Positions 1 through 13,229 of a stretch of DNA of 13,229 bases are shown piece by piece. A program made the translations under genes and the position numbers. The DNA lies in contig JAEOSI010000037.1 of the NCBI GenBank assembly GCA_016840425.1, positions 1-13,229 of the forward strand, in the 5' to 3' direction. Under the pieces are notes generated by a model, which saw only the letters and a list, made by a program, of their open reading frames with translations, was not told where the DNA came from and searched no databases. Position 1 is the first letter of the stretch. Every line of letters starts with the position of its first letter. Origin of the DNA: Candidatus Wukongarchaeum yapensis. GTDB lineage: Archaea > Asgardarchaeota > Wukongarchaeia > Wukongarchaeales > Wukongarchaeaceae.

Positions 1-20
1 TTTTTTTCTTCAGGAACAAT

Positions 21-200
21 CTGACATACTCCCACGACTAAAGTCGGTGGGGTTCTATGCTACGCTACACTGTGCAGAGTAGCTAGCGAGGGGCGTGCCA
101 CCGCCCCGTTAACGACCCCCGCAGGAAACATGTTTCCATCTTCCTGAGCGAGTCTTATATTTCCTATGTTCACACAGCCAACAGCGTCTCTATGCGCTTC
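21..200 (-). ncRNA. Predicted omega/reRNA scaffold overlapping the tnpB 3' end and right end; guide would start at position 20 (ATTGTTCCTGAAGAAAAAAA...)
   Basis: Stacked hairpins on minus: GGAAACATGTTTCC palindrome (124-137), GGGGCG-GTGGCA-CGCCCC, GCTAC...GTAGC, and the terminal right-end hairpin. TnpB reRNAs are known to derive from this region. The 5' boundary (about 200) is a guess. Confidence 0.6.
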
Positions 201-1304
201 CAACTTACATTCTTTACACTTGAACAGTCTTTTATGACGCATTATCTTCTTTGAACTGCATCTAGGGCACGTTGAAGAAGTTCCTCTCTCGTCTATTCTC
301 ACTGTTTTTATCCCGTATTCTTCGGCTTTTTCTTTTAACCGTTTGTAGACGTGTCCTACCGACCAAAAGTTATGAATCATCGAATTACTTTTCTTGTTAA
401 AGTTTGCGCTTTTACGTATGTCCCTTAAGTCTCCGCAGACTATTTCTGAAACGCCTTTTGCCCAGCACTTTTCCATAAAATCTTTCACGATCTTGTTCAC
501 TTTGTCTCTGAACCTTCTTTTACGTTTACGATATAGGGCTTTTAACCGTTTTGAAACGTGTTTATTGTTCTTTTTTTTCAGCTCTTCTTGGTGTTTAGCA
601 ATCTTCTCGGTGTTCCAGTACCACCAGTCTGAAAGCATCGAGTTTGCCTTATAGCCGAAAACTTCCCCGTCTACCCACACCATAATAGGGACTTTTACTC
701 CCAAATCAACGTACGCCTCCTTCTTTTTCTTTTTGTCTCCTTTTAGTTGATGTAGGGGTGGTGGTAGTGGTGGTGGTTTTTCTACCTCTACTGGCATGTG
801 GGCGTACCATTTCTTTGAGAGGTTGTCGTAGCGTATTTCTAACCGTCCTTGTTTTTTTCCTTTCCACTTGTTCTGTCCTTTCCAGTTGATTTCTAGGTTG
901 AAGGGGAGTTTTAGGCGTTTATCGCTTAGTTTGTAGCAGTTACACCTTATAAGAATGGTTAAAACTCTCTTCCCCGTTTTCCTATCCTTCCAGTAGCCTG
1001 GAGGAGAAACCTTACGTATATGTTTTGGGAGTTTTCCCTGTTTCTTCAACCTTAGCAGGGCGAAGAACGATTTCCAAGCTTCGTTGTTCTTCCTTGTTAC
1101 TTGTTGCGCTGTTGCAGAGCCTATAACCTTTTTATATTTGTGATAGAAAAAGTCGGTGTTCCAGTCAAAGTTTTTTGAGAAAAGGGATTGTCTTCTCTTA
1201 TAGTTTATCTCGTTAAACATTCTTGCGCAGTTTTCGGCTAACAAGAACAGTTTTTGCTCTTGCTCTTTTGTCGGGCTTAGTTTAAACGTGTTGGTTCTTC
1301 TCAC
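60..1304 (-). CDS. tnpB: TnpB RNA-guided endonuclease (IS200/IS605 OrfB), 414 aa, GTG start
   Basis: N-terminal 'RTNTFKLSPTKEQEQKL'; RuvC-I 'AYVDLG'; RuvC-II region 'IVCGDL...RIDERGTS'; zinc finger CPRC...CKEC; RuvC-III 'HRDAVGCVNI'; flanked by IS200/IS605 end hairpins. Confidence 0.95.
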   Translation of the reverse strand: MRRTNTFKLSPTKEQEQKLFLLAENCARMFNEINYKRRQSLFSKNFDWNTDFFYHKYKKVIGSATAQQVTRKNNEAWKSFFALLRLKKQGKLPKHIRKVSPPGYWKDRKTGKRVLTILIRCNCYKLSDKRLKLPFNLEINWKGQNKWKGKKQGRLEIRYDNLSKKWYAHMPVEVEKPPPLPPPLHQLKGDKKKKKEAYVDLGVKVPIMVWVDGEVFGYKANSMLSDWWYWNTEKIAKHQEELKKKNNKHVSKRLKALYRKRKRRFRDKVNKIVKDFMEKCWAKGVSEIVCGDLRDIRKSANFNKKSNSMIHNFWSVGHVYKRLKEKAEEYGIKTVRIDERGTSSTCPRCSSKKIMRHKRLFKCKECKLEAHRDAVGCVNIGNIRLAQEDGNMFPAGVVNGAVARPSLATLHSVA

Positions 1305-1436
1305 TTTCTTTCACACTCTCTAACTCCTTTCTAATGAGTTCTGTATAGGCTTTCCTCAGCTTTAAACCCCTTTTGTCTGCATGTTTTTTTCACTTTCTTC
1401 CTGTTTTTCCTCGCTTAAATGTGTATCAATTTTCAT
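1282..1436 (-). pseudogene. Small (about 51 aa) possible RHH/HTH-like ORF overlapping the tnpB start, split by a -1 frameshift
   Basis: ATG at 1436 reads MKIDTHLSEEKQEESEK and stops after 24 codons. A -1 shift in the A7 run (1390-1384) continues HADKRGLKLRKAYTELIRKELESVKESEKNQHV* to TAA at 1284-1282. It lies inside the element ends. The fold assignment is only an impression. Confidence 0.4.
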
Positions 1437-1781
1437 ATAAAAGCACAAATAATAGTTTATTGTAGTGTCTAACTCTTATCGCATTCATCCAACGACTAAA
1501 GAAGCCGTTGGCTTTCTGCGATATTTTTTGTAAACGGCGTAAAATATTTTTAAAGTCGTTCCTGAAGCAAGGAGACGAGGACAGTTTTTCATTATTTCTG
1601 CATAGTTTCTTAGCTTCTTCCGTTGAAGATGTTTCACTAATTATGATCCCACAAATATTTTTTGCCAAATTAAGCCACAACAGATGGTGTTTTATTATAG
1701 AGAAGTAGTAGGGGCGCTTTAGCAAAAAGAAGTTAGAGAGAATGGCGGGCCAGAGGGGATTTGAACCCCCGACCAACAGGT

Positions 1782-1799
1782 TACTTTCCCTTTGAAGGC
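1782..1799 (-). other. tRNA intron 2, 18 nt, canonical position 37/38
   Basis: Bulges TA|G and TA|A; central helix CTCT/AAAG with one C.A mismatch at position 34; intron hairpin CCTT-CAA-AGGG; outer helix is the anticodon stem. Confidence 0.85.
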
Positions 1800-1806
1800 T
1801 AAGAGC

Positions 1807-1828
1807 TTCGACGAGTTTTTCCTCTTTT
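1807..1828 (-). other. tRNA intron 1, 22 nt, non-canonical position 30/31 (BHB/BHL)
   Basis: Central helix CGAC/GTCG, 3' bulge AA|G, outer helix AGAG (D arm)/CTCT (anticodon loop). The 5' site AG|A lies in an enlarged loop before a GAG/CTC intron stem, so the motif is relaxed (BHL-like). Confidence 0.85.
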
Positions 1829-1859
1829 CTGTCGCTCTACCTAGCTGAGCTACTGGCCC

Positions 1860-1975
1860 TTATGGCTTTTCATTGTGTTATTATTAACTAATATGTTTTT
1901 TAATATATTTTTCCTATAAGGATTTCTCATGTTTTTTCCGATTGTTAGTTTTATGTTGATTTGTCTTTGGTTTTG
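1860..1975 (-). repeat. Decayed copy of the methyltransferase 3' end and spacer (homologous to about 4762-4865)
   Basis: Minus 'ATAAAACTAACAATCGGAAAA--AACATGAGAAATCCTTATAGGAAAA' aligns with the MTase 'ATAAAACTTATAACAGGAAAAAGAACCCGAGTAATACTCATAGGAAAA' (IKLITGKRTRVILIGK) with a 2-nt deletion, at a similar distance from the tRNA 5' end. The region is AT-rich, so the boundaries are soft. Confidence 0.6.
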
Positions 1976-2119
1976 ATTTTGGTTTAAGCACATATTATTC
2001 AACAAAATAGGGAGAATGATTATATCATTTGTTGAGAATATTCAAGTAAATAATAGGTTATTCTTTTACATAAATATCATTCTTTTTTGAGGGATGTTAG
2101 TTTGATATGCCGATTGTTT

Positions 2120-4597
2120 ATGGTCAATCAAACTCAAAAAAAGCCGTTTTTAACCGGATTTTTATTAGTCTTATTTGTCACTTCAACGTTATTATCCGTA
2201 TATTTTGACCCTTTTAACCTGCATGAAGAGGCTTACGATACATCCGAAAGCCTGCAACCACCTGATCTCCCTAGGCGTTCAACATACGTGACGGATGGCG
2301 AAGAAAATTGGCTCATCAACGGTACCTTTGAAGACACATACAAACCATGGAACAACGACACCTACAACGACCCCTCTCATCAGAATAACATGACAACTTA
2401 TTGGACCGGAGATCCAACTCATCAGAACGAAACTGGGCCTGGAGAACTTAACATAATTCTGAGAATTGATGGGTATCCTATAGGATCATATTACTACTAC
2501 GATAGAGGCGATAAAGTTTGGTGGAGTCAAACTGTTATGGTTGATAGGCACACTCCAATTCCAGAAACTGAAGAGGGTGCTAGGCTTGTTTTCGATTACT
2601 ATGTTATGGCAGCAGATAACGAGACAGGGCGGATAAGGGAGAGGATCAAGCTTCGGTTTTGGATCAACGACACGTTGATGTGGGAAGGCAGACTCAGAGA
2701 CCTCACCGGGCCGGGTAGTGGATGGACCTACGTTAAAATTACCTCTGCTGAAGGAATGAAGCTCTCAGAATGGTTAAACGAGCGTTTGCCGAGCTATTTA
2801 GAGTTTAAAGTCGAGTTGGTTGTTATAGATGACGCTTATGGGAGTGAACCTTACTCCAATACAACCCAAATTTACGTAGATAATGTTGGTTTAATTATAG
2901 AATCAGAGAGCACGTATTATATTCTGTCCCCAGAAGTCACGGCTACATACGGCGACCATGTAAACTTCAGCGTTTACTACACTTACTTCAACATTTCTGA
3001 GAGTAAACTGAAACTTGTCGAAAACGCTCAAATTGGGATAGACTACAATGGAACACCTTGGATGGGAGGATTCGGTTTTGAAAAACACAATGATCCCGTT
3101 TTGAGCAGCTATACAGTAACCCTCCAAGCACCTCAAACAATTGATTCGGGGCTATATTACCCTGTGTGGGTTAACGCCAGTGCTCCAGGTTTCGAACGTC
3201 AGCGCTTTCCGATAAAGGTTAACGTGGTTAACATTTCAACGGCTTTAAACGCGCCTTACACCATGCTGGTGAGGGAGCATGGTGTAGCAGCAGCTTTCGA
3301 AATCACCTTCAGAGACGCCTATAACGATGCCCCCATAACAGGTGCAAACGTTGTATACGGATGGAGCTATGGATCGGAGCCATTAAACGAAATAGGCAAC
3401 GGCGTCTACAACTTCACAATAGATACTGATTACTTGGACGTGGGAACCTACTACATCAACGTGACTGCTTCCAAGGAGAACTATGACAGCCAGTTTCTGC
3501 AACTTACTCTTGAAATAATCCCCATATCAACAACTTTAAACGCTGACAAAATTACCCTTACTAGGGAAATTGGAGAAAAAGCCGTGTTCGAAGTCACTTT
3601 CAGCGACAGTCAGTGTTCCGTGCTCAGGGGCGCCAACCTCACCTATGAGTGGGATTATGGTTCAGGCCAGTTGCTTGAGGAGGGTGACGGCGTCTACACG
3701 CTAACTATAAAAACCAGTTCCTTAGATGAGGGGACTTATTACATTAATGTTACCGCTTCTCTAAAGGATTATGAGATCCAGTCTTTACAACTTTCGTTGG
3801 TAATAAGGGCAGCTTTCATGGATCAGTTTTTGGATTATTTGCCATACCTGATCTTACTGGCAATAGGCGCGTTTGCTTCGGTTGTTTTGGCGCGGGTTTA
3901 CTCTACTCATAGGCAGGAGCGTCTTGATAGGGAGAAGATTCGCAGGATTATGGTTGTTTTGAAGAGTTTTGCTTTATATGATCAGACCCCTTTTGGGGTT
4001 ATTGCTGGGGAGGGAAGTGTCATCGATAAGGAGTTGGTGAGCGGTTTCTTCACAGCTATTAAAGATATTACTTCAGAAGTTTCAGGAATAACCTTGGAAA
4101 AAATGAAAGTTTATCCCGATCATCCCTACTATTTTGTTTATACTGGCACTTTTTATTGTATTTTGATTTTAAGCGATAAGCCAAGTAAACGTTTGGAGGA
4201 AAAGGTACTTTATTTTGCGGAGGTGGTTGAGGAAAAGTATGGGAATATCTATTCTTCTGATACATTTGGTGTCTTAGACATACAGCTTGACTTAGACGAA
4301 GAAGTTATTCGGATTTTTGGTATAACTCCTATGGCAGTACTTCAAGATATAGTCACGATTTCTTTGAGTTATGAAGAGATTGAAGAAGTTGAGGTAGAGG
4401 ATGATGTTAAAAAGATTTTGAGGACTGGGCGTAGTTTGGCAGATCAGAAGAAAGAGTTCTTCTTGGAAGAGTTAATTCAAGCGTCAAAAGTTGAATTTGG
4501 TGACGATATTAAGAAGGCACACGAATCGTTTATTAAAGCCGTGAAGCGAGGTTTCCTTATCTTAGAAAAAAGTGAAATCAAAGAAGAGAAAAAATAG
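2120..4597 (+). CDS. Large membrane-anchored surface protein: N-terminal signal/TM, beta-rich ectodomain, 2 Ig-like repeats, TM helix, cytoplasmic longin-like domain and small helical C-terminal domain
   Basis: ORF 2087-4597; first ATG at 2120 (MVNQTQKKPFLTGFLLVLFV...). About 16 N-X-S/T sequons occur before the second TM and none after it. Two ~95-aa repeats share GTYYINVTAS (about 3240-3810). TM 'LPYLILLAIGAFASVVLARVY' (about 3839-3900). 'LVSGFFTAIKDITSEV...FYCILILS...LEEKVLYFAEVVEEKY' resembles Asgard longin-like domains. Confidence 0.8.
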   Translation: MVNQTQKKPFLTGFLLVLFVTSTLLSVYFDPFNLHEEAYDTSESLQPPDLPRRSTYVTDGEENWLINGTFEDTYKPWNNDTYNDPSHQNNMTTYWTGDPTHQNETGPGELNIILRIDGYPIGSYYYYDRGDKVWWSQTVMVDRHTPIPETEEGARLVFDYYVMAADNETGRIRERIKLRFWINDTLMWEGRLRDLTGPGSGWTYVKITSAEGMKLSEWLNERLPSYLEFKVELVVIDDAYGSEPYSNTTQIYVDNVGLIIESESTYYILSPEVTATYGDHVNFSVYYTYFNISESKLKLVENAQIGIDYNGTPWMGGFGFEKHNDPVLSSYTVTLQAPQTIDSGLYYPVWVNASAPGFERQRFPIKVNVVNISTALNAPYTMLVREHGVAAAFEITFRDAYNDAPITGANVVYGWSYGSEPLNEIGNGVYNFTIDTDYLDVGTYYINVTASKENYDSQFLQLTLEIIPISTTLNADKITLTREIGEKAVFEVTFSDSQCSVLRGANLTYEWDYGSGQLLEEGDGVYTLTIKTSSLDEGTYYINVTASLKDYEIQSLQLSLVIRAAFMDQFLDYLPYLILLAIGAFASVVLARVYSTHRQERLDREKIRRIMVVLKSFALYDQTPFGVIAGEGSVIDKELVSGFFTAIKDITSEVSGITLEKMKVYPDHPYYFVYTGTFYCILILSDKPSKRLEEKVLYFAEVVEEKYGNIYSSDTFGVLDIQLDLDEEVIRIFGITPMAVLQDIVTISLSYEEIEEVEVEDDVKKILRTGRSLADQKKEFFLEELIQASKVEFGDDIKKAHESFIKAVKRGFLILEKSEIKEEKK

Positions 4598-4649
4598 ACA
4601 ATACGGGAAGAAGAACAAAAACCGAAAACTTCTATCAAACTTTAATATA

Positions 4650-4761
4650 TTATCAGAAGGATTTTGAAATCCCGACCAACAGGTTACTATCCCTTTGGAG
4701 GTTAAGGGGTTCGACGAGTTTTTCTCGTTTCTATCGCTGTAACTAGCTGAGCTATTAGCCT
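4650..4761 (-). pseudogene. Degenerate copy of the two-intron tRNA-Lys(CUU)
   Basis: About 83% identical (91/109 columns by hand) to 1751-1859, including both introns and the CTT anticodon. The acceptor stem is destroyed (AGGCTAA vs CTGATAA), U33 is changed to C, the T-arm is altered and there is no CCA. Confidence 0.88.
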
Positions 4762-4790
4762 TGCATTTTTTTAAGGTAATATTATAACAA

Positions 4791-5588
4791 CTATATTTTT
4801 CTTTTTCCTATGAGTATTACTCGGGTTCTTTTTCCTGTTATAAGTTTTATGAGTGTTGTTTTTAGTTTAAGTTTTTTCATTTGGTTTTCAAGTTTTTTTA
4901 TTCTTTGTTGGTGTTTTATGCTTAAAAGTAAAGCGGTTATTCCTTCTTTTTTTAAGTATTCAACTCCCTCTTTTATGATGTGGGATGAGAGGGTTTGATC
5001 GCTAAGTTCAGCGGGTTCTCCTGAGAACGCTTTTCCCTTTATTTCTTTTTCTTTGTACCAAGGAGGATTTGAAAGGATAGCATCAAATTTGATATCTTCT
5101 CTTATTACTCCTTTTATAACATTATTTTTTTCAACTGGGATTATTTTTACTCGGTCTTCTAAGTCGTTTTTTTTAACGTTTATTTTAGCGTATTTATAGA
5201 GGTGGGAGTCTTTTTCTGTGGCGAAGGCTTTTGCGTTGAAGTGTTTTGCTGCAAGAAGTGCTATGATAGCGCTTGCTCCTGTCCCTATTTCTAAAATATT
5301 GCTTTTCGGTTTGATAGTTTCTTTGAGGAAAGTGAAGCGTAGGGGAGGGGTTGGGGTTAGAGCGTTTTCAGGTAGTTCGAGGTCGAGGTCGTATTTTTCT
5401 CGTGATATTAGGAGATTGTAAAGGCGGAGAGCTTCTTTGGATCTGAAATCGATTCCCTTTTTTATGAGGTATTTTTTGAGCTTTGGTTCTAGCTTGATCG
5501 CTTCTTCTATTTTTAGGGCTTGAGGGACTAAAACACTCCTATCAAATTTCAACGAATTTTTTTGGTGGGAGCAATCGCTGTGGTTCAT
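4791..5588 (-). CDS. RlmF/METTL16-family SAM-dependent (putative RNA m6A) methyltransferase, 265 aa
   Basis: 'DFRSKEALRLYN...LDLELPENALTPTPPLRFTF', motif I 'ILEIGTGASAIIALL', catalytic 'SNPPWY'. The probable start is the ATG at 5588, which overlaps the upstream TGA (ATGA), rather than 5618. Confidence 0.85.
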   Translation of the reverse strand: MNHSDCSHQKNSLKFDRSVLVPQALKIEEAIKLEPKLKKYLIKKGIDFRSKEALRLYNLLISREKYDLDLELPENALTPTPPLRFTFLKETIKPKSNILEIGTGASAIIALLAAKHFNAKAFATEKDSHLYKYAKINVKKNDLEDRVKIIPVEKNNVIKGVIREDIKFDAILSNPPWYKEKEIKGKAFSGEPAELSDQTLSSHIIKEGVEYLKKEGITALLLSIKHQQRIKKLENQMKKLKLKTTLIKLITGKRTRVILIGKRKI

Positions 5589-6858
5589 GGTCCTATATGC
5601 CCTCCTTTTGTTTGGCACATAGCGTTTTTTAGACCCGTTTCATCTAGAACTTCTTTTACTTTCATCATTTCGGCGATTGTTGGCCATATAAGGTGTTTTG
5701 CTCGGAATTCTGGTCTGTAGTCTAAAGCACATACTTGTATGTTTGGTTCCCATTTAGCGATTTTTTCCCCGATTTTTCTAACTTCTTCTAGGGAGATTAG
5801 GGCAGGGTTATAGGGTATTCCTAAGCCTAAAAACACATCTCCCCAGTAGTTGTCTATTATGTATTTTACAGAGTTCCATTCTGTTTCAAAGTAGCGTTTT
5901 GCGAGCTCCTTATCATGAAGGTTTGTGATTTTCATGAAGGTTTCAATTTCTAATCCTTTTACGTCGATGCCTATGTCGGTCATTCCTTTTTCTAAGAGGG
6001 CGTCTATATAGTCTGGGGTGAGTATTGCTCCGTTGGTGTCGACATGAACCCGGGCTTTATCATCTTTATTGAGGTTTTTTACCTCTTTTATGTACTGGAG
6101 GAGCCATGGTTTGTTTAGGGTGCTTTCTCCGCCGCTTATCGCCATGCGGTCCACGTTGTTTATTTTTCTATACTCTGTGATTTTTATCGCAGCTTCTTTT
6201 GGGGTGAGAAGTTCACCTTTAGAAGCATAGGTTATGTGCCAGTTTTGGCAGGAGGGACACCGAAAACAGCATCCTTGGGCAAAAAAGGCAACCTCAATGT
6301 ATCCACGGACTCTTTTGAGTTCAGCGGGTGTGCTTGTGCCACAAGATGCCCAAATAATTAGAGCATTTTTGTGTCTACACCACCAACTGGGTGCCCGCTG
6401 AAACCCCTAACAAGACGGGGGGAGTTAGACCGTTCTACTTGTGTTATTTTGATGTTCATGTTTTCCCTGATCGGCGTGATGCAGGAAGGCTTTAGCTTTC
6501 CGTCGATTTCTACAGCGCAACTCCAGCAACCCCCCGTTCTACAAGGAGCAAAAATCGTGTCTTTTTCGGGGAAGAGGGAAAAGCGATAACTGATCATTTC
6601 TAAAGCTTTTAATACAGTGATCCTTTCAGGCACAAAATAGGTTTCTCTTTCAACTTTGATCCTTACCTGTCCCCTTTCCCTTTTATCAGGGATCAATTTT
6701 CTTGCTTCATGGGGGCATGCAACTATACAGCTTCCGCAACCAGTACAACTTTTAATACCTGGGCAAGCAATCCAAGTCTCGCAAAATCTACATTTCTTAC
6801 ACAATTCCTCTTGTTTGAAAGCTACCTGAAACGGAGACTCTTCTCGTTCTTTTTGCAT
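5585..6858 (-). CDS. Spliced gene join(6858..6375, 6333..5585): 410-aa 4Fe-4S dicluster + 2Fe-2S ferredoxin-like + radical SAM protein (activating-enzyme-like)
   Basis: Exon 1 (484 nt): CKKCRFCE...C, CTGCGSCIVACP, CRTGGCWSC...SC. Exon 2 (749 nt): TPAELKRVRGYIEVAFFAQGCCFRCPSCQNW (CxxxCxxC), then DRMAISGGE and VHVDTNG. Total 1233 nt = 411 codons; the junction reads GGVG-TP. The ORF track splits it into 6358-6858 and 5585-6154 and misses the radical SAM motif. Confidence 0.88.
6334..6374 (-). other. 41-nt BHB (tRNA-type) intron in a protein-coding gene
   Basis: ACACAAAAATGCTCTAATTATTTGGGCATCTTGTGGCACAA. Exon helix GTG/CAC, central helix GTGT/GCAC, 3-nt bulges AG|A and AA|G, intron helices CACAA/TTGTG and ATGCTC/GGGCAT. 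It contains an in-frame TAA and shifts the frame; removal restores it. Confidence 0.88.
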
Positions 6859-7063
6859 CTAAGTTACTCCTATATTTACATATCATGAAATATTGGATGC
6901 ATAGGACATAAAAAGATTTATTATTTGGTTTATATTCAGATTTTAAAGGTTTAAACTAATTTAATAAGATAAAAATGGAAAAAGGAAAGTTTTTCGAAAA
7001 AAATAGTGTTTTTTTAGTAAGATTATGATAATCAAGCCTATCATAGGCTTATTTTTTATATTA

Positions 7064-7666
7064 TTAAACGGGAAAATTTTGTCTGGTTAGCAATAAAAGG
7101 CTGAGGATGCCTGTGATAGTTGTCGCGCTTATTCCAAGAGCTGCTGCGGCTATTGGATATTCTAATTGATCGTATGCCAAAAGAAAGCCCATTTCTGCGG
7201 CTGCAAGAATTAATCCTAAAAATATGGCGAAAATAAGTATGCGGGCAGTGGCTTCTTTTTCTTTTTGAATGTAATCTTTCCGTGTTACTATTCCTTGTAC
7301 CACGACTAGAGGGTTTAATCCTTGTAGGAGAGTCAGGAAGAATAGGAAAATTAAAGCTGCAAATATTCCTAAGCTCATTATGAAACTTATTGCTCGAATT
7401 CCTTTGGAGAAGTAGCCAAGGGTTAGAATTTCTGCGATTATGAAACAAAAAAATAAATAGTTTCCGATCAGCTTATCTTCAGGATGCACGAAGCCTTCAA
7501 CATCGGTGTAAGTCTCAGTAAAAGTATTCCAAACGGCTATGATCCCTACGATTATTAAAAAGAATAGTGAGACATAATAGGTTGCTAAACTATCGTTTAT
7601 TAAGGCAAAAGCGAGTATTGTTGCACCGATACCAGCAAATATGCCGTTAAACATGGCAAGACGCAT
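7064..7666 (-). CDS. Uncharacterised polytopic membrane protein, 200 aa, about 6 TM segments
   Basis: Alternating hydrophobic stretches; GGAGAG SD-like motif upstream of the ATG at 7666. No family recognised. Confidence 0.75.
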   Translation of the reverse strand: MRLAMFNGIFAGIGATILAFALINDSLATYYVSLFFLIIVGIIAVWNTFTETYTDVEGFVHPEDKLIGNYLFFCFIIAEILTLGYFSKGIRAISFIMSLGIFAALIFLFFLTLLQGLNPLVVVQGIVTRKDYIQKEKEATARILIFAIFLGLILAAAEMGFLLAYDQLEYPIAAAALGISATTITGILSLLLLTRQNFPV

Positions 7667-7862
7667 TCTTTAATCTCTCCAAACTTCAATAAGATTCAAA
7701 AACAATGACCTTATTTATCTTTGTTTGCTGTGAATAGTTTAAGCTATTTTTCATGCAAATATAGTTGTGAAAACTTTTAGATATTTTATGTTATGTAAAA
7801 AATATGTGTATTCTTTGACTGTTTAACTTTTGGTTTGTTAATTTATGATTGGGTGTATATGC

Positions 7863-8294
7863 ATGGGTTTTCGGGTTTTGGTTTTTGGTACTTTTGACAT
7901 TATTCATCCTGCCCATGTTATTTTCCTTAAGGAGGCGCGGAAACTTGGTGAGGAGGGGGGAGAGCTTATTGTGGTTGTTGCCCTTGATTCAAGTGTTGTA
8001 AAAGAAAAGGGGAAACCGCCTATTTTTTCTGCTGAAGAAAGACGGTTTTTGGTTCAGGCTTTAAAGCCAGTAAATCAGACTTGCTTGGGTTATGAGGATG
8101 ATAGGTTAAGAATAATTGAAGAGTTGAAGCCTGACTTAATTGCCTTGGGTTATGATCAGAAAGTTGATGAAAGCATCTTAAAAAAAGAGCTTGCTCGGCG
8201 GGGAGTTGATGTAGAGATTATTCGTTTAAAACGATATGGAGATATAAAATCAAGTAAAATAAAGAGGATGGTAGTTGAACGTTTCAAAAAATAG
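7863..8294 (+). CDS. ribL: Archaeal FAD synthetase (cytidylyltransferase-like nucleotidyltransferase)
   Basis: 'VLVFGTFDIIHPAH' (HxxH), 'VVVALD', 'EERRFLV', 'KPDLIALGYDQ', 'SSKIK'. ORF starts at 7845; the ATG at 7863 is the likelier start. Confidence 0.8.
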   Translation: MGFRVLVFGTFDIIHPAHVIFLKEARKLGEEGGELIVVVALDSSVVKEKGKPPIFSAEERRFLVQALKPVNQTCLGYEDDRLRIIEELKPDLIALGYDQKVDESILKKELARRGVDVEIIRLKRYGDIKSSKIKRMVVERFKK

Positions 8295-8410
8295 AGAAGT
8301 AAAGGCTGAAAAGTAAGGGAATTTAAAGGAGGGGGGTTAACTGTCAGAAAATTTAATTTTTTGGCGTTTTTTCTTATTTGTTAAGTTTTTTGTACTCTTT
8401 TATTTTACTG

Positions 8411-9313
8411 TTATTTTCCATAGAGGAGTGTTGCTTCTTCGGCTTCTATTTCTTTCAGTTGGGCTCTTATTTCGTCGAGTTCTTTTGGTTTTATTTTTGG
8501 ATGTTTGTCTGCGGAGTATAGTTGGGTTTCTAATCGTTTTTTAAGTCGGCGTAAAATTAGTAGTTTAGAGCGTTTTATAGGGCTTAGTGTTGGTAAAATG
8601 TATTCGTCTTCTTTTATGATGGGTTCCTCGGTTTCTGCAAGTATAAGGGAGGGGAGCTCTATTTTTCTTTCGAAGGGTTTTTCTCCGGGGGGGATAGTCT
8701 CAGGAATAATAACGGGTTTTTCTTCGATTATTTCGACTTTTTTGGGCTTTTCTTCTTTTTTTAATGTTTTTTTCATCATCGCTTTGAAGGCTTCAAAAAT
8801 GCCTAAACCTATTTTTGCAGACACTTCGTATACTTCGGGCGCCAATATGCCAAGGGCACCTAACCTTTGAATAAATTCAAAACGGCTTATAGGCTCTACA
8901 ACGTCCCCTCTTTGGTTGAGTAAGAAGAGGATTTTTGGGTTTATTTTTAGTTGGTGTAAGTAGGCTCTTAGCTCTCTTAAACTCTCTATGTTTTTTTCAG
9001 CCATGCTTCTTAGAGTGTCTGCGACAAAAATCACGCAGTCGGAATCCTGAAGAATCATTCGTCTTAAAGCATAGAACGAAGCGGCTCCCGCCGTTGTATA
9101 AAGATCTATTACTACTTTTTCGCTTAGGCTGAGAGGGGCATACTCAAACATCATTGTTTTCCCGAATTCTGTAGAAGTTTTGATGATCGAGTTTTGGGAA
9201 ACAGCTCTCTCCATTCGGCTTAATAGAGCGTTGAATGTGGCGGATTTCCCACTTAATTGCGGGCCCCAGATAACGCATTTCACGTGCAGGCGGCCACTAG
9301 CGTCACGTTTCAC
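8411..9313 (-). CDS. MglA-like small GTPase with degenerate G3/G4 motifs and a ~115-aa C-terminal extension
   Basis: G1 GPQLSGKS; switch 'GKTMMFEY'; 'LYTTAGA' and 'LRRMILQDSDCVIFVAD...NIESL' parallel MglA (LYTVPGQ, RKLILKGVDGVVFVAD); G4 NQRG; G5 SAK. GGAG SD before the GTG start. Confidence 0.8.
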   Translation of the reverse strand: MKRDASGRLHVKCVIWGPQLSGKSATFNALLSRMERAVSQNSIIKTSTEFGKTMMFEYAPLSLSEKVVIDLYTTAGAASFYALRRMILQDSDCVIFVADTLRSMAEKNIESLRELRAYLHQLKINPKILFLLNQRGDVVEPISRFEFIQRLGALGILAPEVYEVSAKIGLGIFEAFKAMMKKTLKKEEKPKKVEIIEEKPVIIPETIPPGEKPFERKIELPSLILAETEEPIIKEDEYILPTLSPIKRSKLLILRRLKKRLETQLYSADKHPKIKPKELDEIRAQLKEIEAEEATLLYGK

Positions 9314-9604
9314 GATAAAAAACTCCTTCCGACCTTTTTGGGACTTTGAAAATGATTTTATAATCTATTAACTTTTCTTTTATAGCTAAAAGGGAATATC
9401 GGACTTATCTTTTTTTTGGTTTACTTTTTTGATAGGTTTTTTGAGAAATTTGATTTAAAGGTTTTTTAAAAAAATTAGGGACTATAAAGGTGTTTTTTCA
9501 TTTTTAAGGGTTTTTTGAGGAATTTTAGAGAGAGAAAATTTTGAAATACTTAAAGTTGCATAATAAATAAAAGAGGATTAGTTTTTTGGCAGGGTTGATT
9601 TTTT

Positions 9605-11317
9605 ATGTTTTTTCCTATTTTGTCCTCTTTTGATGCTGAGAAGAATTTTGTTGGGCGATCTGAAATTTTAAACGATTTTAGGAACGTTCTTGACGGTATA
9701 AAAAGCAGAAAAGAAGGAAAAAGGGGCATAATTGTTACAGGTAAAGCTGGATGTGGCAAATCGCTTCTTTTGAAGCTCTTTAGTAATTTGGCGGATGCTG
9801 AAGGTTGGAAAATATCAAGTTTTTCTATACCTCTTGGTAGAGATATTCAGGGCATTGCTAGGAAAATTGTGGAGGATCTTTCATCGTTTTTTCCTTCAGA
9901 GGATAAGAAAATACAAAAAGTTGTTTCTTTGCTTCCACAAGTATCGTTAATTTTTCCGGGTGTGGAGCTTTCAGAGGTTGAAGAAACAGTTAAAAATAGT
10001 TTTAAAGCGATTAAAGAGTTTTTAGAAGCTAATAGGTTAAATGTTATTTTTTTGATAGATTGCTTTGAACGTTTTATTTTGAAGGGTTATACGGATCTGA
10101 CTCGGTTTTTCACAAATCTTGTTGAGTGGCTTGAGGGGGAGAAAATTAGTGTTCTTTTTGTTTTTGCTTTGGATGAAAGGTTTCTGCCTTATTTTGGGGA
10201 GAAAAGCGTTCTCATAGATCGTTTCTCTTTGGTGGAGCTTCGCGCTTTAGGGGTTAGGGAGGCTGAAATACTTATTAATAGGGTAACAGAGGGGGCAAAT
10301 ATTTCAAGTTTGGCGGATGAGGTTCGTAAGAACATTGTGCTTTTGACTGATAGAACGCCTTTTTCTATAATCTATACCTTAGCATCTATCGCGGATTTTG
10401 TAGGAGATCCTTCTATAGAGATCACTATGGAAAAATGGCAGGAGATGGGCGGGGACGATATTTTTGAGAGGCTAATGCCTGCCCCTTTAAACGCTCTTGA
10501 CGATGAAGAAAGAAAAGTTTTGAAATTTTTAGCAAGGACACCTGTAAATATTTCGACCCTTCAGAAGGTTGAAATCAACCTTGCTCCCAATATTGCGGAA
10601 GAGGGATTAGAAGGATTGAAAAGTAAAGGCATCTTAGTGGTGGAGGATGATTTTCTTCAATTTGTATCTAATGCGCTTTTTGAACTGCTTCATAAGAGGG
10701 AGGAGATAGATCCTCTTACTATGCTTTATGTTTATGTGGATCTGGTGACGGCGGAGATAGATAAGGGTTGGAAAGCTTCAGCCACTTTGATTCGTAAAAT
10801 CTCTGAGATGGGACAGGAGATAGTGAAAGAAGGGGGAGAATCCTTTAGGGTTTATGATTTAGCCGTAAAAATCGAGAAATTGGCAAAGAGGACCCTTGAG
10901 AAGAAGTTTTTGCATGATGCTTTTTCGCTTTTTACTTTGAGTGGAGCTTTGTATACTGCCTCTGGAGATGTTGAGAGGGCAGGCATTACTTATGATGAGG
11001 CTTCAAAAGCGTTTATAGAGCTTGATAGGCCTATTTTTGCAAAGATGCTTTTGATACAGGCTTCAGAATTCTTTAAGAGTATAGGCACAGAGTGGAAAGG
11101 TAAAAGTATGGCAAGAGAAGCAGTTTATGTGCTTGAAGATCTTGCGAGAGATTTTTCAAGCCAGAATATGAACGCCATAGCGAGCGCTTATCTTTATTCG
11201 GCCTTAAAATTATGCGAAATAGCTGGGGATGAGGAGAGGAGAAAAGAGATTCTTCAAAAAGCTTTAGCAGCTTCAAGCGATTTAGAACGTAAAAGAAGCT
11301 TTTTTGAAAAGTTATAA
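9605..11317 (+). CDS. Archaeal/STAND-like P-loop ATPase with probable winged-helix and TPR/SNAP-like C-terminal repeats, 570 aa
   Basis: 'FVGR' motif, Walker A GKAGCGKS (aa 46-53), Walker B 'VIFLIDCFE'; helical Ala-rich repeats in the C-terminal ~150 aa. Confidence 0.75.
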   Translation: MFFPILSSFDAEKNFVGRSEILNDFRNVLDGIKSRKEGKRGIIVTGKAGCGKSLLLKLFSNLADAEGWKISSFSIPLGRDIQGIARKIVEDLSSFFPSEDKKIQKVVSLLPQVSLIFPGVELSEVEETVKNSFKAIKEFLEANRLNVIFLIDCFERFILKGYTDLTRFFTNLVEWLEGEKISVLFVFALDERFLPYFGEKSVLIDRFSLVELRALGVREAEILINRVTEGANISSLADEVRKNIVLLTDRTPFSIIYTLASIADFVGDPSIEITMEKWQEMGGDDIFERLMPAPLNALDDEERKVLKFLARTPVNISTLQKVEINLAPNIAEEGLEGLKSKGILVVEDDFLQFVSNALFELLHKREEIDPLTMLYVYVDLVTAEIDKGWKASATLIRKISEMGQEIVKEGGESFRVYDLAVKIEKLAKRTLEKKFLHDAFSLFTLSGALYTASGDVERAGITYDEASKAFIELDRPIFAKMLLIQASEFFKSIGTEWKGKSMAREAVYVLEDLARDFSSQNMNAIASAYLYSALKLCEIAGDEERRKEILQKALAASSDLERKRSFFEKL

Positions 11318-11334
11318 GAGGTGGGTGAGAAGGC

Positions 11335-12846
11335 TTGAGTGAAAAAAGTTTGGAAAAGGTTAAAGAAACTGTTGGAAATATAGAGGAGATTCTTAAGAAT
11401 CTTGATGCTGAGATTTCAAAACTAGACGGGGTTAAGGAGGATTTTGGTAAAAATTTTAGTGCAAATATTGAAGCGGTTAAGAATGAGGCTTCTCGGCTTA
11501 AAAAAGAAGCAGAGGATTCTATAGACGGGGCATCTGGAAAGTCTTTAAGCGAATTAGACGGGATAAAAGGCAGGATAGTTGGAGGAATTGGTTCACAAGA
11601 ACGAGAGTTTTCGGAAAAACTTGATAAATCGGCCTTGGAAGGAGTGTTTTCTGAGGAGCTAAAAAACGTTCAAACAGCTTTTAACATAGGAGCGGCAGGT
11701 CTGGCCGGATTAATAATTTCTCATAAAGATGAGTTAACAAATCTATTGACTGGGCATTTAGGTCAACGGGAGCAGGTTTTTTTAAAAGTTCAAGAGGGTA
11801 TCAATGAACCGATAAAAAAGGTTGGTCAGGAGATAGTTAGTAGTTCTAAGGGCCTTGAAAGCGAGTTAGAAAATGCCTTTACAAGAACAAAGGATAAGTT
11901 TGGAGGGATTCAAAGTAAGGTCTTTAAAGATATTGATTTAACTACGAAGGAACAGTCGGGAAAATTAGGGGAAAGCGTTACAGCGTTGAAACAGGACTTT
12001 CAAAGTGATCTTCTTAAGACATTAGAGACGGTGACAGATTCTTTTATGGCTTTTCAAGGGATGTTTGATTCAACGATTAAAGACGCTATAGATAGGCTTA
12101 ACCAAACAGCCGAGGAGCTTAGGGCAAACATTGATAAAAGGATTGTTGAAAAGCTTGGTGAAATTGAGGAGTTGGCTATAAAGTATGAAGATTTCTTTTT
12201 GAAGACTTTGGAGTCTTCTGTTGAGAAATTTGTTGAACAATTGACGGAAACAAAGACATCCATAATTGATGCTATTTCTTCTCAGACTAATGAGTTTCAA
12301 GAAGTTTTTCAGAATACTAAGTCGCAGATCGTTGAAAACTTTAATACTCATGTAAAAAGTTTTGAAGAGAAAATTGAGGAAGAGATGAAGGAATTTAAAA
12401 ACGCAACGGACCAGGCAAAGACGGATGAACAATCAGTAATCGTTCAAACTAAGGATAGTATAGGACAAAAGACAGGTTCTACGCTAAACAATTTTAACAT
12501 TAGACTAGAAGAACAGTCAATATCACTGGAAGAGAAAATATTAGTGGCAAAAAATAGCATTATTGGGCAATTAGAAGCCTTAGTGAACAATATCAAAACA
12601 CTGTTTTCTGAAGAAAAAACTGAGGTTGAAAACGTTTTCACAGAAACTTCTCAAAGCGTAACAGAAAGCTCAAAAGCCATGATAACGGAGTTTACTAACG
12701 CTATAGATTCCTTCAGCAAAACTGCAGAAAATACCCTAAACGAGGTAAAATCCGACGCAGAAAAAGCGATAAAAGATTCAATAAAACAAGGAAAAAGCAT
12801 CCATAAAGAAGGTGAAAAGGCTAAATTAACCCTCGAAAAAATTTAG
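11335..12846 (+). CDS. Long all-helical coiled-coil / apolipoprotein-like repeat protein, 503 aa, TTG start
   Basis: Continuous amphipathic E/K/L/S-rich pattern with almost no Pro and no Cys or Trp. Starts 17 nt after the ATPase stop, with a GAGGTG SD-like motif upstream. Confidence 0.8.
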   Translation: MSEKSLEKVKETVGNIEEILKNLDAEISKLDGVKEDFGKNFSANIEAVKNEASRLKKEAEDSIDGASGKSLSELDGIKGRIVGGIGSQEREFSEKLDKSALEGVFSEELKNVQTAFNIGAAGLAGLIISHKDELTNLLTGHLGQREQVFLKVQEGINEPIKKVGQEIVSSSKGLESELENAFTRTKDKFGGIQSKVFKDIDLTTKEQSGKLGESVTALKQDFQSDLLKTLETVTDSFMAFQGMFDSTIKDAIDRLNQTAEELRANIDKRIVEKLGEIEELAIKYEDFFLKTLESSVEKFVEQLTETKTSIIDAISSQTNEFQEVFQNTKSQIVENFNTHVKSFEEKIEEEMKEFKNATDQAKTDEQSVIVQTKDSIGQKTGSTLNNFNIRLEEQSISLEEKILVAKNSIIGQLEALVNNIKTLFSEEKTEVENVFTETSQSVTESSKAMITEFTNAIDSFSKTAENTLNEVKSDAEKAIKDSIKQGKSIHKEGEKAKLTLEKI

Positions 12847-12990
12847 AAAAAAAGCAAGAATCCCTTCATTTAGACGTATAGAAACATATAAACCATAATA
12901 TAGGAACAGTTAATATAGATTAATGAGATGCTCTTAGATTATTTTAAAATCTAACATAAAAGCGTTAAAATTTTTGAGAGAGGAGGAAAG

Positions 12991-13229
12991 ATGTCGATAA
13001 CTGAATCTTTAAAGAAAATAGGATTAGAAGAACTTCAAGTAGGAGCTTATAACGTTCTTATAGCTCTTGGGGCAAAAACAGTAGAGGAAGTAGCTTTAAA
13101 CTTAAAAAAAGATCTTAGCGAGATTACTGAGGCACTTGACGAACTTGTGGAAAAGGGGTTCGTTAAAAAAATAGCGGGAAAAGTGGACCTTTACACTGCC
13201 CTTGCACCAAGTATTGTTCTCACAGCCGA
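12991..13229 (+). CDS. TrmB-family winged-HTH protein, 5' part only (runs off the window)
   Basis: Not in the ORF track. AGGAGG SD, then MSITESLKKIGLEELQVGAYNVLIALGAKTVEEVALNLKKDLSEITEALDELVEKGFVKKIAGKVDLYTALAPSIVLTA, matching the TrmB N-terminal pattern (L..lGL...e...Y..L...G...LxxKGFV...Y.A..P). Confidence 0.75.
   Translation, partial: MSITESLKKIGLEELQVGAYNVLIALGAKTVEEVALNLKKDLSEITEALDELVEKGFVKKIAGKVDLYTALAPSIVLTA

Follow-up and report, generated by a model that had tools for sequence, protein, structure and literature searches.

In Archaea, cbf5 represents the only coding sequence in which an intron of the bulge-helix-bulge (BHB) type is known, and an intron in a 5' untranslated region (UTR) of Haloferax constitutes the second mRNA substrate (PMC7714728). 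Introns in protein genes other than cbf5 have only been predicted (PMC2738675). As for the Asgard archaea, a study of their tRNA genes reports introns gained repeatedly on terminal branches, calls their route of arrival open and leaves mRNA introns unmentioned (bioRxiv 10.64898/2026.10.13.758758), and a full-text literature search found no report of BHB introns in Asgard protein genes. The locus described here lies in a stretch of 13,229 nt of Candidatus Wukongarchaeum yapensis (contig JAEOSI010000037.1, positions 1 to 13,229, hereafter the window, to which coordinates without another label refer), in which a radical SAM gene is interrupted by an insert of 41 nt. The sequence argues that this insert (6374..6334) is probably an archaeal BHB intron within the coding sequence of a Wukongarchaeota-type Asgard archaeon, and that the mRNA is very probably spliced. 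What is observed directly is the motif with its exact boundaries, the genes for the enzymes, and an insert that recurs in the DNA of several samples; together these point to cleavage and ligation in the cell. The initial annotation of the window, which proposed this intron and named cbf5 as the well-known archaeal mRNA case, is in agreement with the literature on the latter point (PMC7714728; PMC2738675).

The interrupted radical SAM gene and its intronless relatives

The gene is located on the minus strand. The first exon (6375..6858) comprises codons 1-161 and the first base of codon 162 and encodes 4Fe-4S and 2Fe-2S ferredoxin-like modules (Fer4, Fer2_4, Fer2_3), and the second (5585..6333) encodes the radical SAM core, including the CX3CX2C motif, together with the stop codon (Radical_SAM, 1.5e-16; Fer4_12). 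The insert (6334..6374, minus strand) holds an in-frame TAA (6360..6358) and changes the frame, as had been claimed and as was confirmed on the minus strand. In the unspliced frame, the ATG at 6858 opens a 166-aa open reading frame (ORF) that ends at this TAA, and the downstream part, to 5585, is in a different frame. Excision of 6374..6334 gives a single ORF of 1233 nt and 410 aa, of the ferredoxin/radical SAM type, equal in length to its orthologues and without any further stop or frameshift of the kind that marks a pseudogene. Judged from its domains, the product is a ferredoxin-domain/radical SAM protein that is PFL-activase-like; the best curated models are those of glycyl-radical-enzyme activases, every one of them under its cut-off. 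About a thousand homologues of roughly 400 aa share this architecture and are found in Asgard archaea, Bathyarchaeia, Nitrososphaeria, Methanomethylicia and other archaea.

The genus includes lineages in which the gene is intronless, namely P0003 (L001 and L002), the genome G001 (L006), a White Oak River contig (L049) and an ENA contig (L064). When their DNA is aligned with the window, all four show a gap of 41 nt placed exactly between G6375 and G6333, and nine additional 410-aa proteins of the same 90% cluster are likewise uninterrupted. The spliced junction recreates the motif GGVGTP, which is invariant in all 117 of the 117 full-length homologues, and a shift of the splice boundary by one base in either direction would put Asp or Ser in the place of its Gly; in P0003 the junction peptide GGVGTPAELK is identical. 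Hence the intronless relatives, which had been suggested as a check of the intron, fit the junction exactly, and no other deletion boundary is needed.

In public annotations the gene is given as two fragments and, if it is spliced, annotation pipelines mislabel a working gene in this way. The possibility of a truly split gene with an internal restart was rejected: the earliest ATG, GTG or TTG start in the frame of exon 2 is at 6154, and the product would be without the cluster because this start comes after the CX3CX2C motif. Fragmentation is found elsewhere in the family. In other metagenomes, two distant orthologues (L051, 784-1999; L052, 2001-3319) each consist of an N-terminal and a C-terminal ORF, separated by a plain frameshift and not by an insert, and other truncated N-terminal ORFs found in databases are due to plain frameshifts or contig ends, none of them with an insert. 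The fragmented copies of the family, therefore, do not all conceal an intron.

The RNA motif, the splicing machinery and competing explanations

The insert and its flanks had been described as a strict hBHBh' motif, and a pair-by-pair check found each of the named pairs. The exon helix h is formed by GUG of exon 1 (6381..6383, minus strand) and CAC of exon 2 (6330-6332), with the pairs G6383-C6330, U6382-A6331 and G6381-C6332. The central helix H of 4 bp joins the exon strand GUGU (6377..6380, minus strand) to GCAC of the intron (6336-6339) through G6380-C6336, U6379-A6337, G6378-C6338 and the single G-U pair U6377-G6339. The first bulge, AG|A (6374..6376, minus strand; A6376 G6375|A6374), holds the 5' splice site between 6375 and 6374, and the second, AA|G (6333..6335, minus strand; A6335 A6334|G6333), holds the 3' splice site between 6334 and 6333. 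The intron hairpin h' (6340..6373, minus strand) consists of a 5-bp stem, CACAA/UUGUG (6373-6369 with 6340-6344), and a distal stem of 6 bp with one G-U pair, AUGCUC/GGGCAU (6366-6361 with 6346-6351), closed by a 9-nt loop (6360-6352). The two 3-nt bulges lie on opposite strands, each 3' of its own strand of the central helix, which is the geometry of tRNA introns. BHB motifs are cut between bulge bases two and three (PMC2738675), and cutting both bulges after the second base yields the 410-aa ORF as predicted; the cut sites derived from RNA structure alone thus coincide with the boundaries that homology demands. A motif of at least this quality at a fixed place and with a length of 41 nt (h of at least 3 bp, H of 4 bp, h' of at least 5 bp) occurs at 87 of 4.27 million positions of the organism's own genome, a frequency of 2.0e-5.

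The genome measures 2.16 Mb, is 92% complete and encodes one EndA (L004, 735-1346; 203 aa, with N and C domains) as well as RtcB (L005). The host had been taken for a probable Asgard archaeon, and this is borne out by the NCBI labels, since the proteins of the cluster are assigned to Candidatus Wukongarchaeota and the same-genus genome G001 to Ca. Hodarchaeota archaeon DZ1B.339. With both enzymes encoded in the host, predicted cuts that match the homology gap to the base and GGVGTP restored, the proposal of a canonical BHB intron in an mRNA is supported. According to the proposed mechanism, GUG GUGU of exon 1 would pair in the pre-mRNA with CAC of exon 2 and GCAC of the intron, so that either strand would present a 3-nt bulge, with 4 bp between the two, and the interrupted intron hairpin of 11 bp would close the structure. 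In each bulge EndA would cleave behind the second base, and the exons would be ligated by RtcB, so that the Gly codon G|GC and GGVGTP would be recreated and the 41-nt intron released, probably to be circularised.

Inserts of the same kind are found in other protein genes of this genome, which were examined as named genes and not as a genome census: pcm (C126, 5248..5277, minus strand; 30 nt; junction TISAPH^MV), Alba (C201, 429..464, plus strand; 36 nt; junction KPV^MNY), aIF2-alpha (C70, 1451..1480, minus strand; 30 nt with an in-frame TGA; junction HISE^IA) and dnaG (C87, 7479..7510, minus strand; 32 nt; junction GALFGQ^TEGLLG). All four combine a 4-bp helix and a pair of 3-nt bulges with a strong stem in the intron, the exon helix being minimal or absent, and in each of them excision at the canonical sites recreates a conserved motif. 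The same-genus genome retains the dnaG insert, which differs there by three substitutions; one of these converts a G-U pair into an A-U pair. The aIF2-alpha insert is missing from that genome, and the Ser codon on the exon strand of the central helix is TCG in the copy with the intron versus AGC in the intronless one. The interrupted aIF2-alpha gene is the single copy found in the genome, and the organism must therefore splice mRNAs; it is mainly for this reason that splicing of the radical SAM mRNA is rated likely. With at least four further interrupted genes, including the sole aIF2-alpha found, splicing of mRNAs through EndA and RtcB would be an everyday process in this genome. A genome-wide scan of the kind suggested in the initial annotation, combining BHB motifs with the merging of ORFs, proved non-discriminating, as it returned 3115 matches against 3112 in a mirror-geometry control, with no excess at stricter thresholds; the noise seems to arise from same-strand gene boundaries.

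Several observations speak against splicing of the radical SAM transcript. The exon helix h is only 3 bp long. In the minimum-free-energy fold the outer helix takes a different register and the 4-bp helix is open (-24.2 versus -15.1 kcal/mol for the BHB), so that the competing register is about 9 kcal/mol more stable than the BHB in the nearest-neighbour model, though the intron hairpin h' is retained in this fold as well; the overall stability of the fold is ordinary (z = -1.5). Moreover, the five intron-bearing copies are near-identical, with one single-nucleotide polymorphism over about 840 nt that falls outside the intron; the intact ORF therefore tells little about the time since insertion, and the five identical introns offer no covariation. 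Finally, a search of 60 related genomes found a full-length orthologue (E at or below 1e-100) in only about 20; the gene is thus not universal, and a null allele could be tolerated.

The more stable competing fold, the near-clonal copies and the patchy occurrence of the gene, together with an intronless allele that these samples seem to contain at similar depth, would be compatible with a null allele or young pseudogene. In that case an element of BHB shape, such as a tRNA-type intron that had transposed, would have landed in or been recombined into a dispensable gene, its removal would be too inefficient to give useful protein, and the allele would be segregating in the population. Such an origin is considered unlikely, given that the same genome relies on splicing of this type for the sole aIF2-alpha copy found and for dnaG, that the boundaries recreate the invariant GGVGTP to the base and that the exons have the bases required for the pairing. 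The BHB structure is recognised by archaeal EndA regardless of the surrounding RNA, and a transcript able to fold in this way should therefore be cut and religated.

A second alternative assigns a regulatory role to the intron, which follows the ferredoxin modules, precedes the radical SAM core and places a stop five codons inside its own sequence. Under partial or conditional splicing, the unspliced message would yield a free ferredoxin-like protein of 166 aa and the spliced one the full enzyme, together with a methyltransferase. The stop codon of the radical SAM gene, in fact, overlaps as ATGA (5585..5588, minus strand) the start codon of a downstream gene for a Methyltransf_10-family methyltransferase (4791..5588), whose translation may hinge on ribosomes that finish the spliced radical SAM message. 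This arrangement and the competing RNA fold would fit a switch; close relatives, however, manage without the intron, nothing indicates regulation, and the introns of pcm, Alba, aIF2-alpha and dnaG sit within conserved motifs and not at domain borders, so that a switch appears quite improbable.

The insert is also present beyond this assembly, which answers the concern, raised at the outset, that it might be an assembly artefact: the identical intron and 166-aa ORF occur in four further assemblies (two GenBank metagenome-assembled genomes, one ENA contig and one JGI contig), five in all, and Logan contigs from four runs of four studies span 6334-6374 with zero mismatches and zero gaps. An assembly or sequencing artefact, or translational bypassing or frameshifting in place of splicing, would account for the broken frame taken alone but can be practically dismissed, as the identical 41 nt are found, without a gap, in five independent assemblies and in contigs from four runs, frameshifting cannot eliminate the TAA and 13 extra codons, and bypassing of the T4 gene 60 type, judged by reading the sequence, has no pair of take-off and landing codons that preserves GGVGTP.

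A divergence island around the probable intron

The intron lies within an island of about 840 nt (6002..6840) that has sharp edges and is 14-21% divergent from the relative L001 (45/332 mismatches on the exon-2 side and 98/466 on the exon-1 side), between flanks that are about 99% identical, with 13 differences in 1350 nt at 4600-5950 and 83 in 5990 nt at 6860-12850. In the comparison with L001, the synonymous divergence (dS) reaches 1.0 on the exon-1 side, with a ratio of nonsynonymous to synonymous divergence (dN/dS) of 0.12, and 0.67 on the exon-2 side (dN/dS 0.07), against 0.024 in the rest of exon 2 (dN/dS 0.26, from only 4 differences). Across the island dN/dS is 0.07-0.14, which gives no sign of relaxed selection and says little on the time since the insert arrived.

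The unusual partner in this comparison is the window, at least in exon 1. Compared in bins of 60 nt, its exon 1 has 63-88% identity with each sampled intronless lineage and is thus an outlier, because those lineages are about 89% identical among themselves in the same exon; the identity of the window to all of them climbs just past the intron. At the protein level, the window's exon 1 shares 75-80% identity with each of the 13 intronless 410-aa proteins of the cluster. A donor of this allele was not found, the nearest sequence being that of the same-genus genome with 80% amino acid identity and the next one at 56%, and no intronless version of the window-type exon 1 was found. Searches returned no diverged copy of the intron, the organism's own genome holds only chance 10-14-mers of it, and the hairpin has no exact match in species-representative genomes. 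The simplest reading of these data suggests that the intron arrived together with about 0.8 kb of flanking exon DNA, acquired through homologous recombination, and that the source was an unsampled relative whose copy of the gene was under purifying selection; this is most likely how the intron-bearing allele was gained. The third-position U residues of the exons that pair in h and H (6382 and 6379) fall inside the island. The codon pair GGT GGT that provides them occurs in none of the intronless members of the genus, and its association with the intron is weak support because the pair also occurs in 5 of 28 more distant orthologues.

Sequence data from other samples suggest that both alleles occur side by side. 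In runs X1 and X2 the contigs break at the ends of the island, and the depth of the island contig is about half that of its flanks (12.3 versus 25.6 and 11 versus 23.3, respectively); in X2, short L001-like unitigs are present. Intron-plus and intron-minus alleles, therefore, seem to coexist in the sediments. In run X4, the contig joined to the 3' flank was compared at the 25 sites within 6002-6202 where the window and L001 differ and agrees with L001 at 21 of them, and a second contig of similar depth is identical to the window over a stretch that starts at 6303 and includes the intron. These contigs hint at a recombinant, and X4 may carry a shorter tract on the exon-2 side; the contigs cover 5585-6202 and 6303-6856, with 6203-6302 uncovered and hence no bridging contig.

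On these grounds it is tentatively proposed, with a likelihood somewhat short of even, that the intron spreads as DNA, carried along with adjoining exon sequence when related Asgard populations undergo ordinary homologous recombination, that an island similar to those of co-conversion is left behind, and that the intron is currently polymorphic in marine sediments, possibly with varied tract lengths. If true, the locus would be a snapshot of a tRNA-type intron entering and spreading in a protein gene, and would indicate a route of arrival for BHB introns. Near the aIF2-alpha intron nothing clear in the way of an island was seen in the comparison of the host genome (G000) with G001, which are separated by species-level divergence. 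A second zone of low identity to L001 (67-85%) is found in the window at 3400-4600, within an 836-aa ORF (2087..4597) and beside DNA that is 99-100% identical.

Comparison with known splicing systems

The HVO_1309 mRNA of Haloferax volcanii carries a BHB intron in its 5' UTR and, as is proposed for the radical SAM transcript, serves EndA as an mRNA substrate, a role confirmed both in vivo and in vitro (PMC7714728). Its intron, however, resides in an untranslated leader with no frame to restore, and the host is a euryarchaeon, unlike the case of the radical SAM intron. The multi-intron tRNA genes of Asgard archaea share with it the host group and the motif, although the introns are there located in tRNA genes (bioRxiv 10.64898/2026.10.13.758758). 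A tRNA gene with an enlarged anticodon arm is encoded on the contig of the radical SAM gene, 4.5 kb from its intron (1746-1859, minus strand; 114 nt; Rfam tRNA, 50.3 bits). It has about 40 extra bases in the anticodon-arm region, was missed by ARAGORN with default settings and gave no single canonical motif with a simple strict-BHB script; this tRNA probably carries more than one intron.

Other comparisons concern the behaviour of the intron as DNA and the logic of the reaction. Archaeal rRNA introns with homing endonuclease genes, of the I-DmoI and I-PorI type, are spliced through BHB motifs, spread as DNA into intron-less alleles and co-convert the flanking exon. The 41-nt intron is, by contrast, too small for an endonuclease gene, and its spread would need ordinary homologous recombination. 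In eukaryotes, the HAC1 and XBP1 mRNAs undergo a spliceosome-independent reaction in which an endonuclease cut and a join by a tRNA ligase (RtcB in animals) alter the reading frame. There, Ire1 acts on paired stem-loops and the process is regulated by stress, whereas the radical SAM intron would be processed by EndA on a BHB.

The closest described system is the intron of the cbf5 pre-mRNA in Crenarchaeota (Watanabe 2002; Yokobori 2009, PMC2738675), which is also a short BHB-bounded intron in a coding sequence, is cut between the second and third bases of the bulges and interrupts a conserved motif. The patchy distribution of the cbf5 intron, with gains and losses, and its use of the tRNA splicing endonuclease and ligase (PMC2738675) can be likened to what is seen and proposed for the radical SAM intron. 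The two differ in gene and host, as cbf5 encodes a pseudouridine synthase in Crenarchaeota and the gene described here a radical SAM enzyme in an Asgard archaeon; cbf5-type introns are defined by the catalytic Asp codon of cbf5 in Desulfurococcales or Sulfolobales, and the radical SAM intron is not of this type. Moreover, the cbf5 motifs are mostly unconventional or relaxed (PMC2738675), in contrast to the canonical hBHBh' of the radical SAM intron, and cbf5 splicing is experimentally supported, whereas that of the radical SAM mRNA is deduced here from DNA. Unlike the cbf5 intron, the radical SAM intron varies in its presence within one species, and this variation is linked to a recombination island. 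This intraspecific polymorphism, together with the island, is the added value of the case: alleles with and without the intron, in one species and set apart by a recombination island with sharp limits, make the locus a rare opportunity for studying the arrival and spread of such introns. If the transcript is spliced as proposed, tRNA-type mRNA splicing would extend from cbf5 to an ordinary metabolic gene and to the Asgard archaea, the group closest to eukaryotes.
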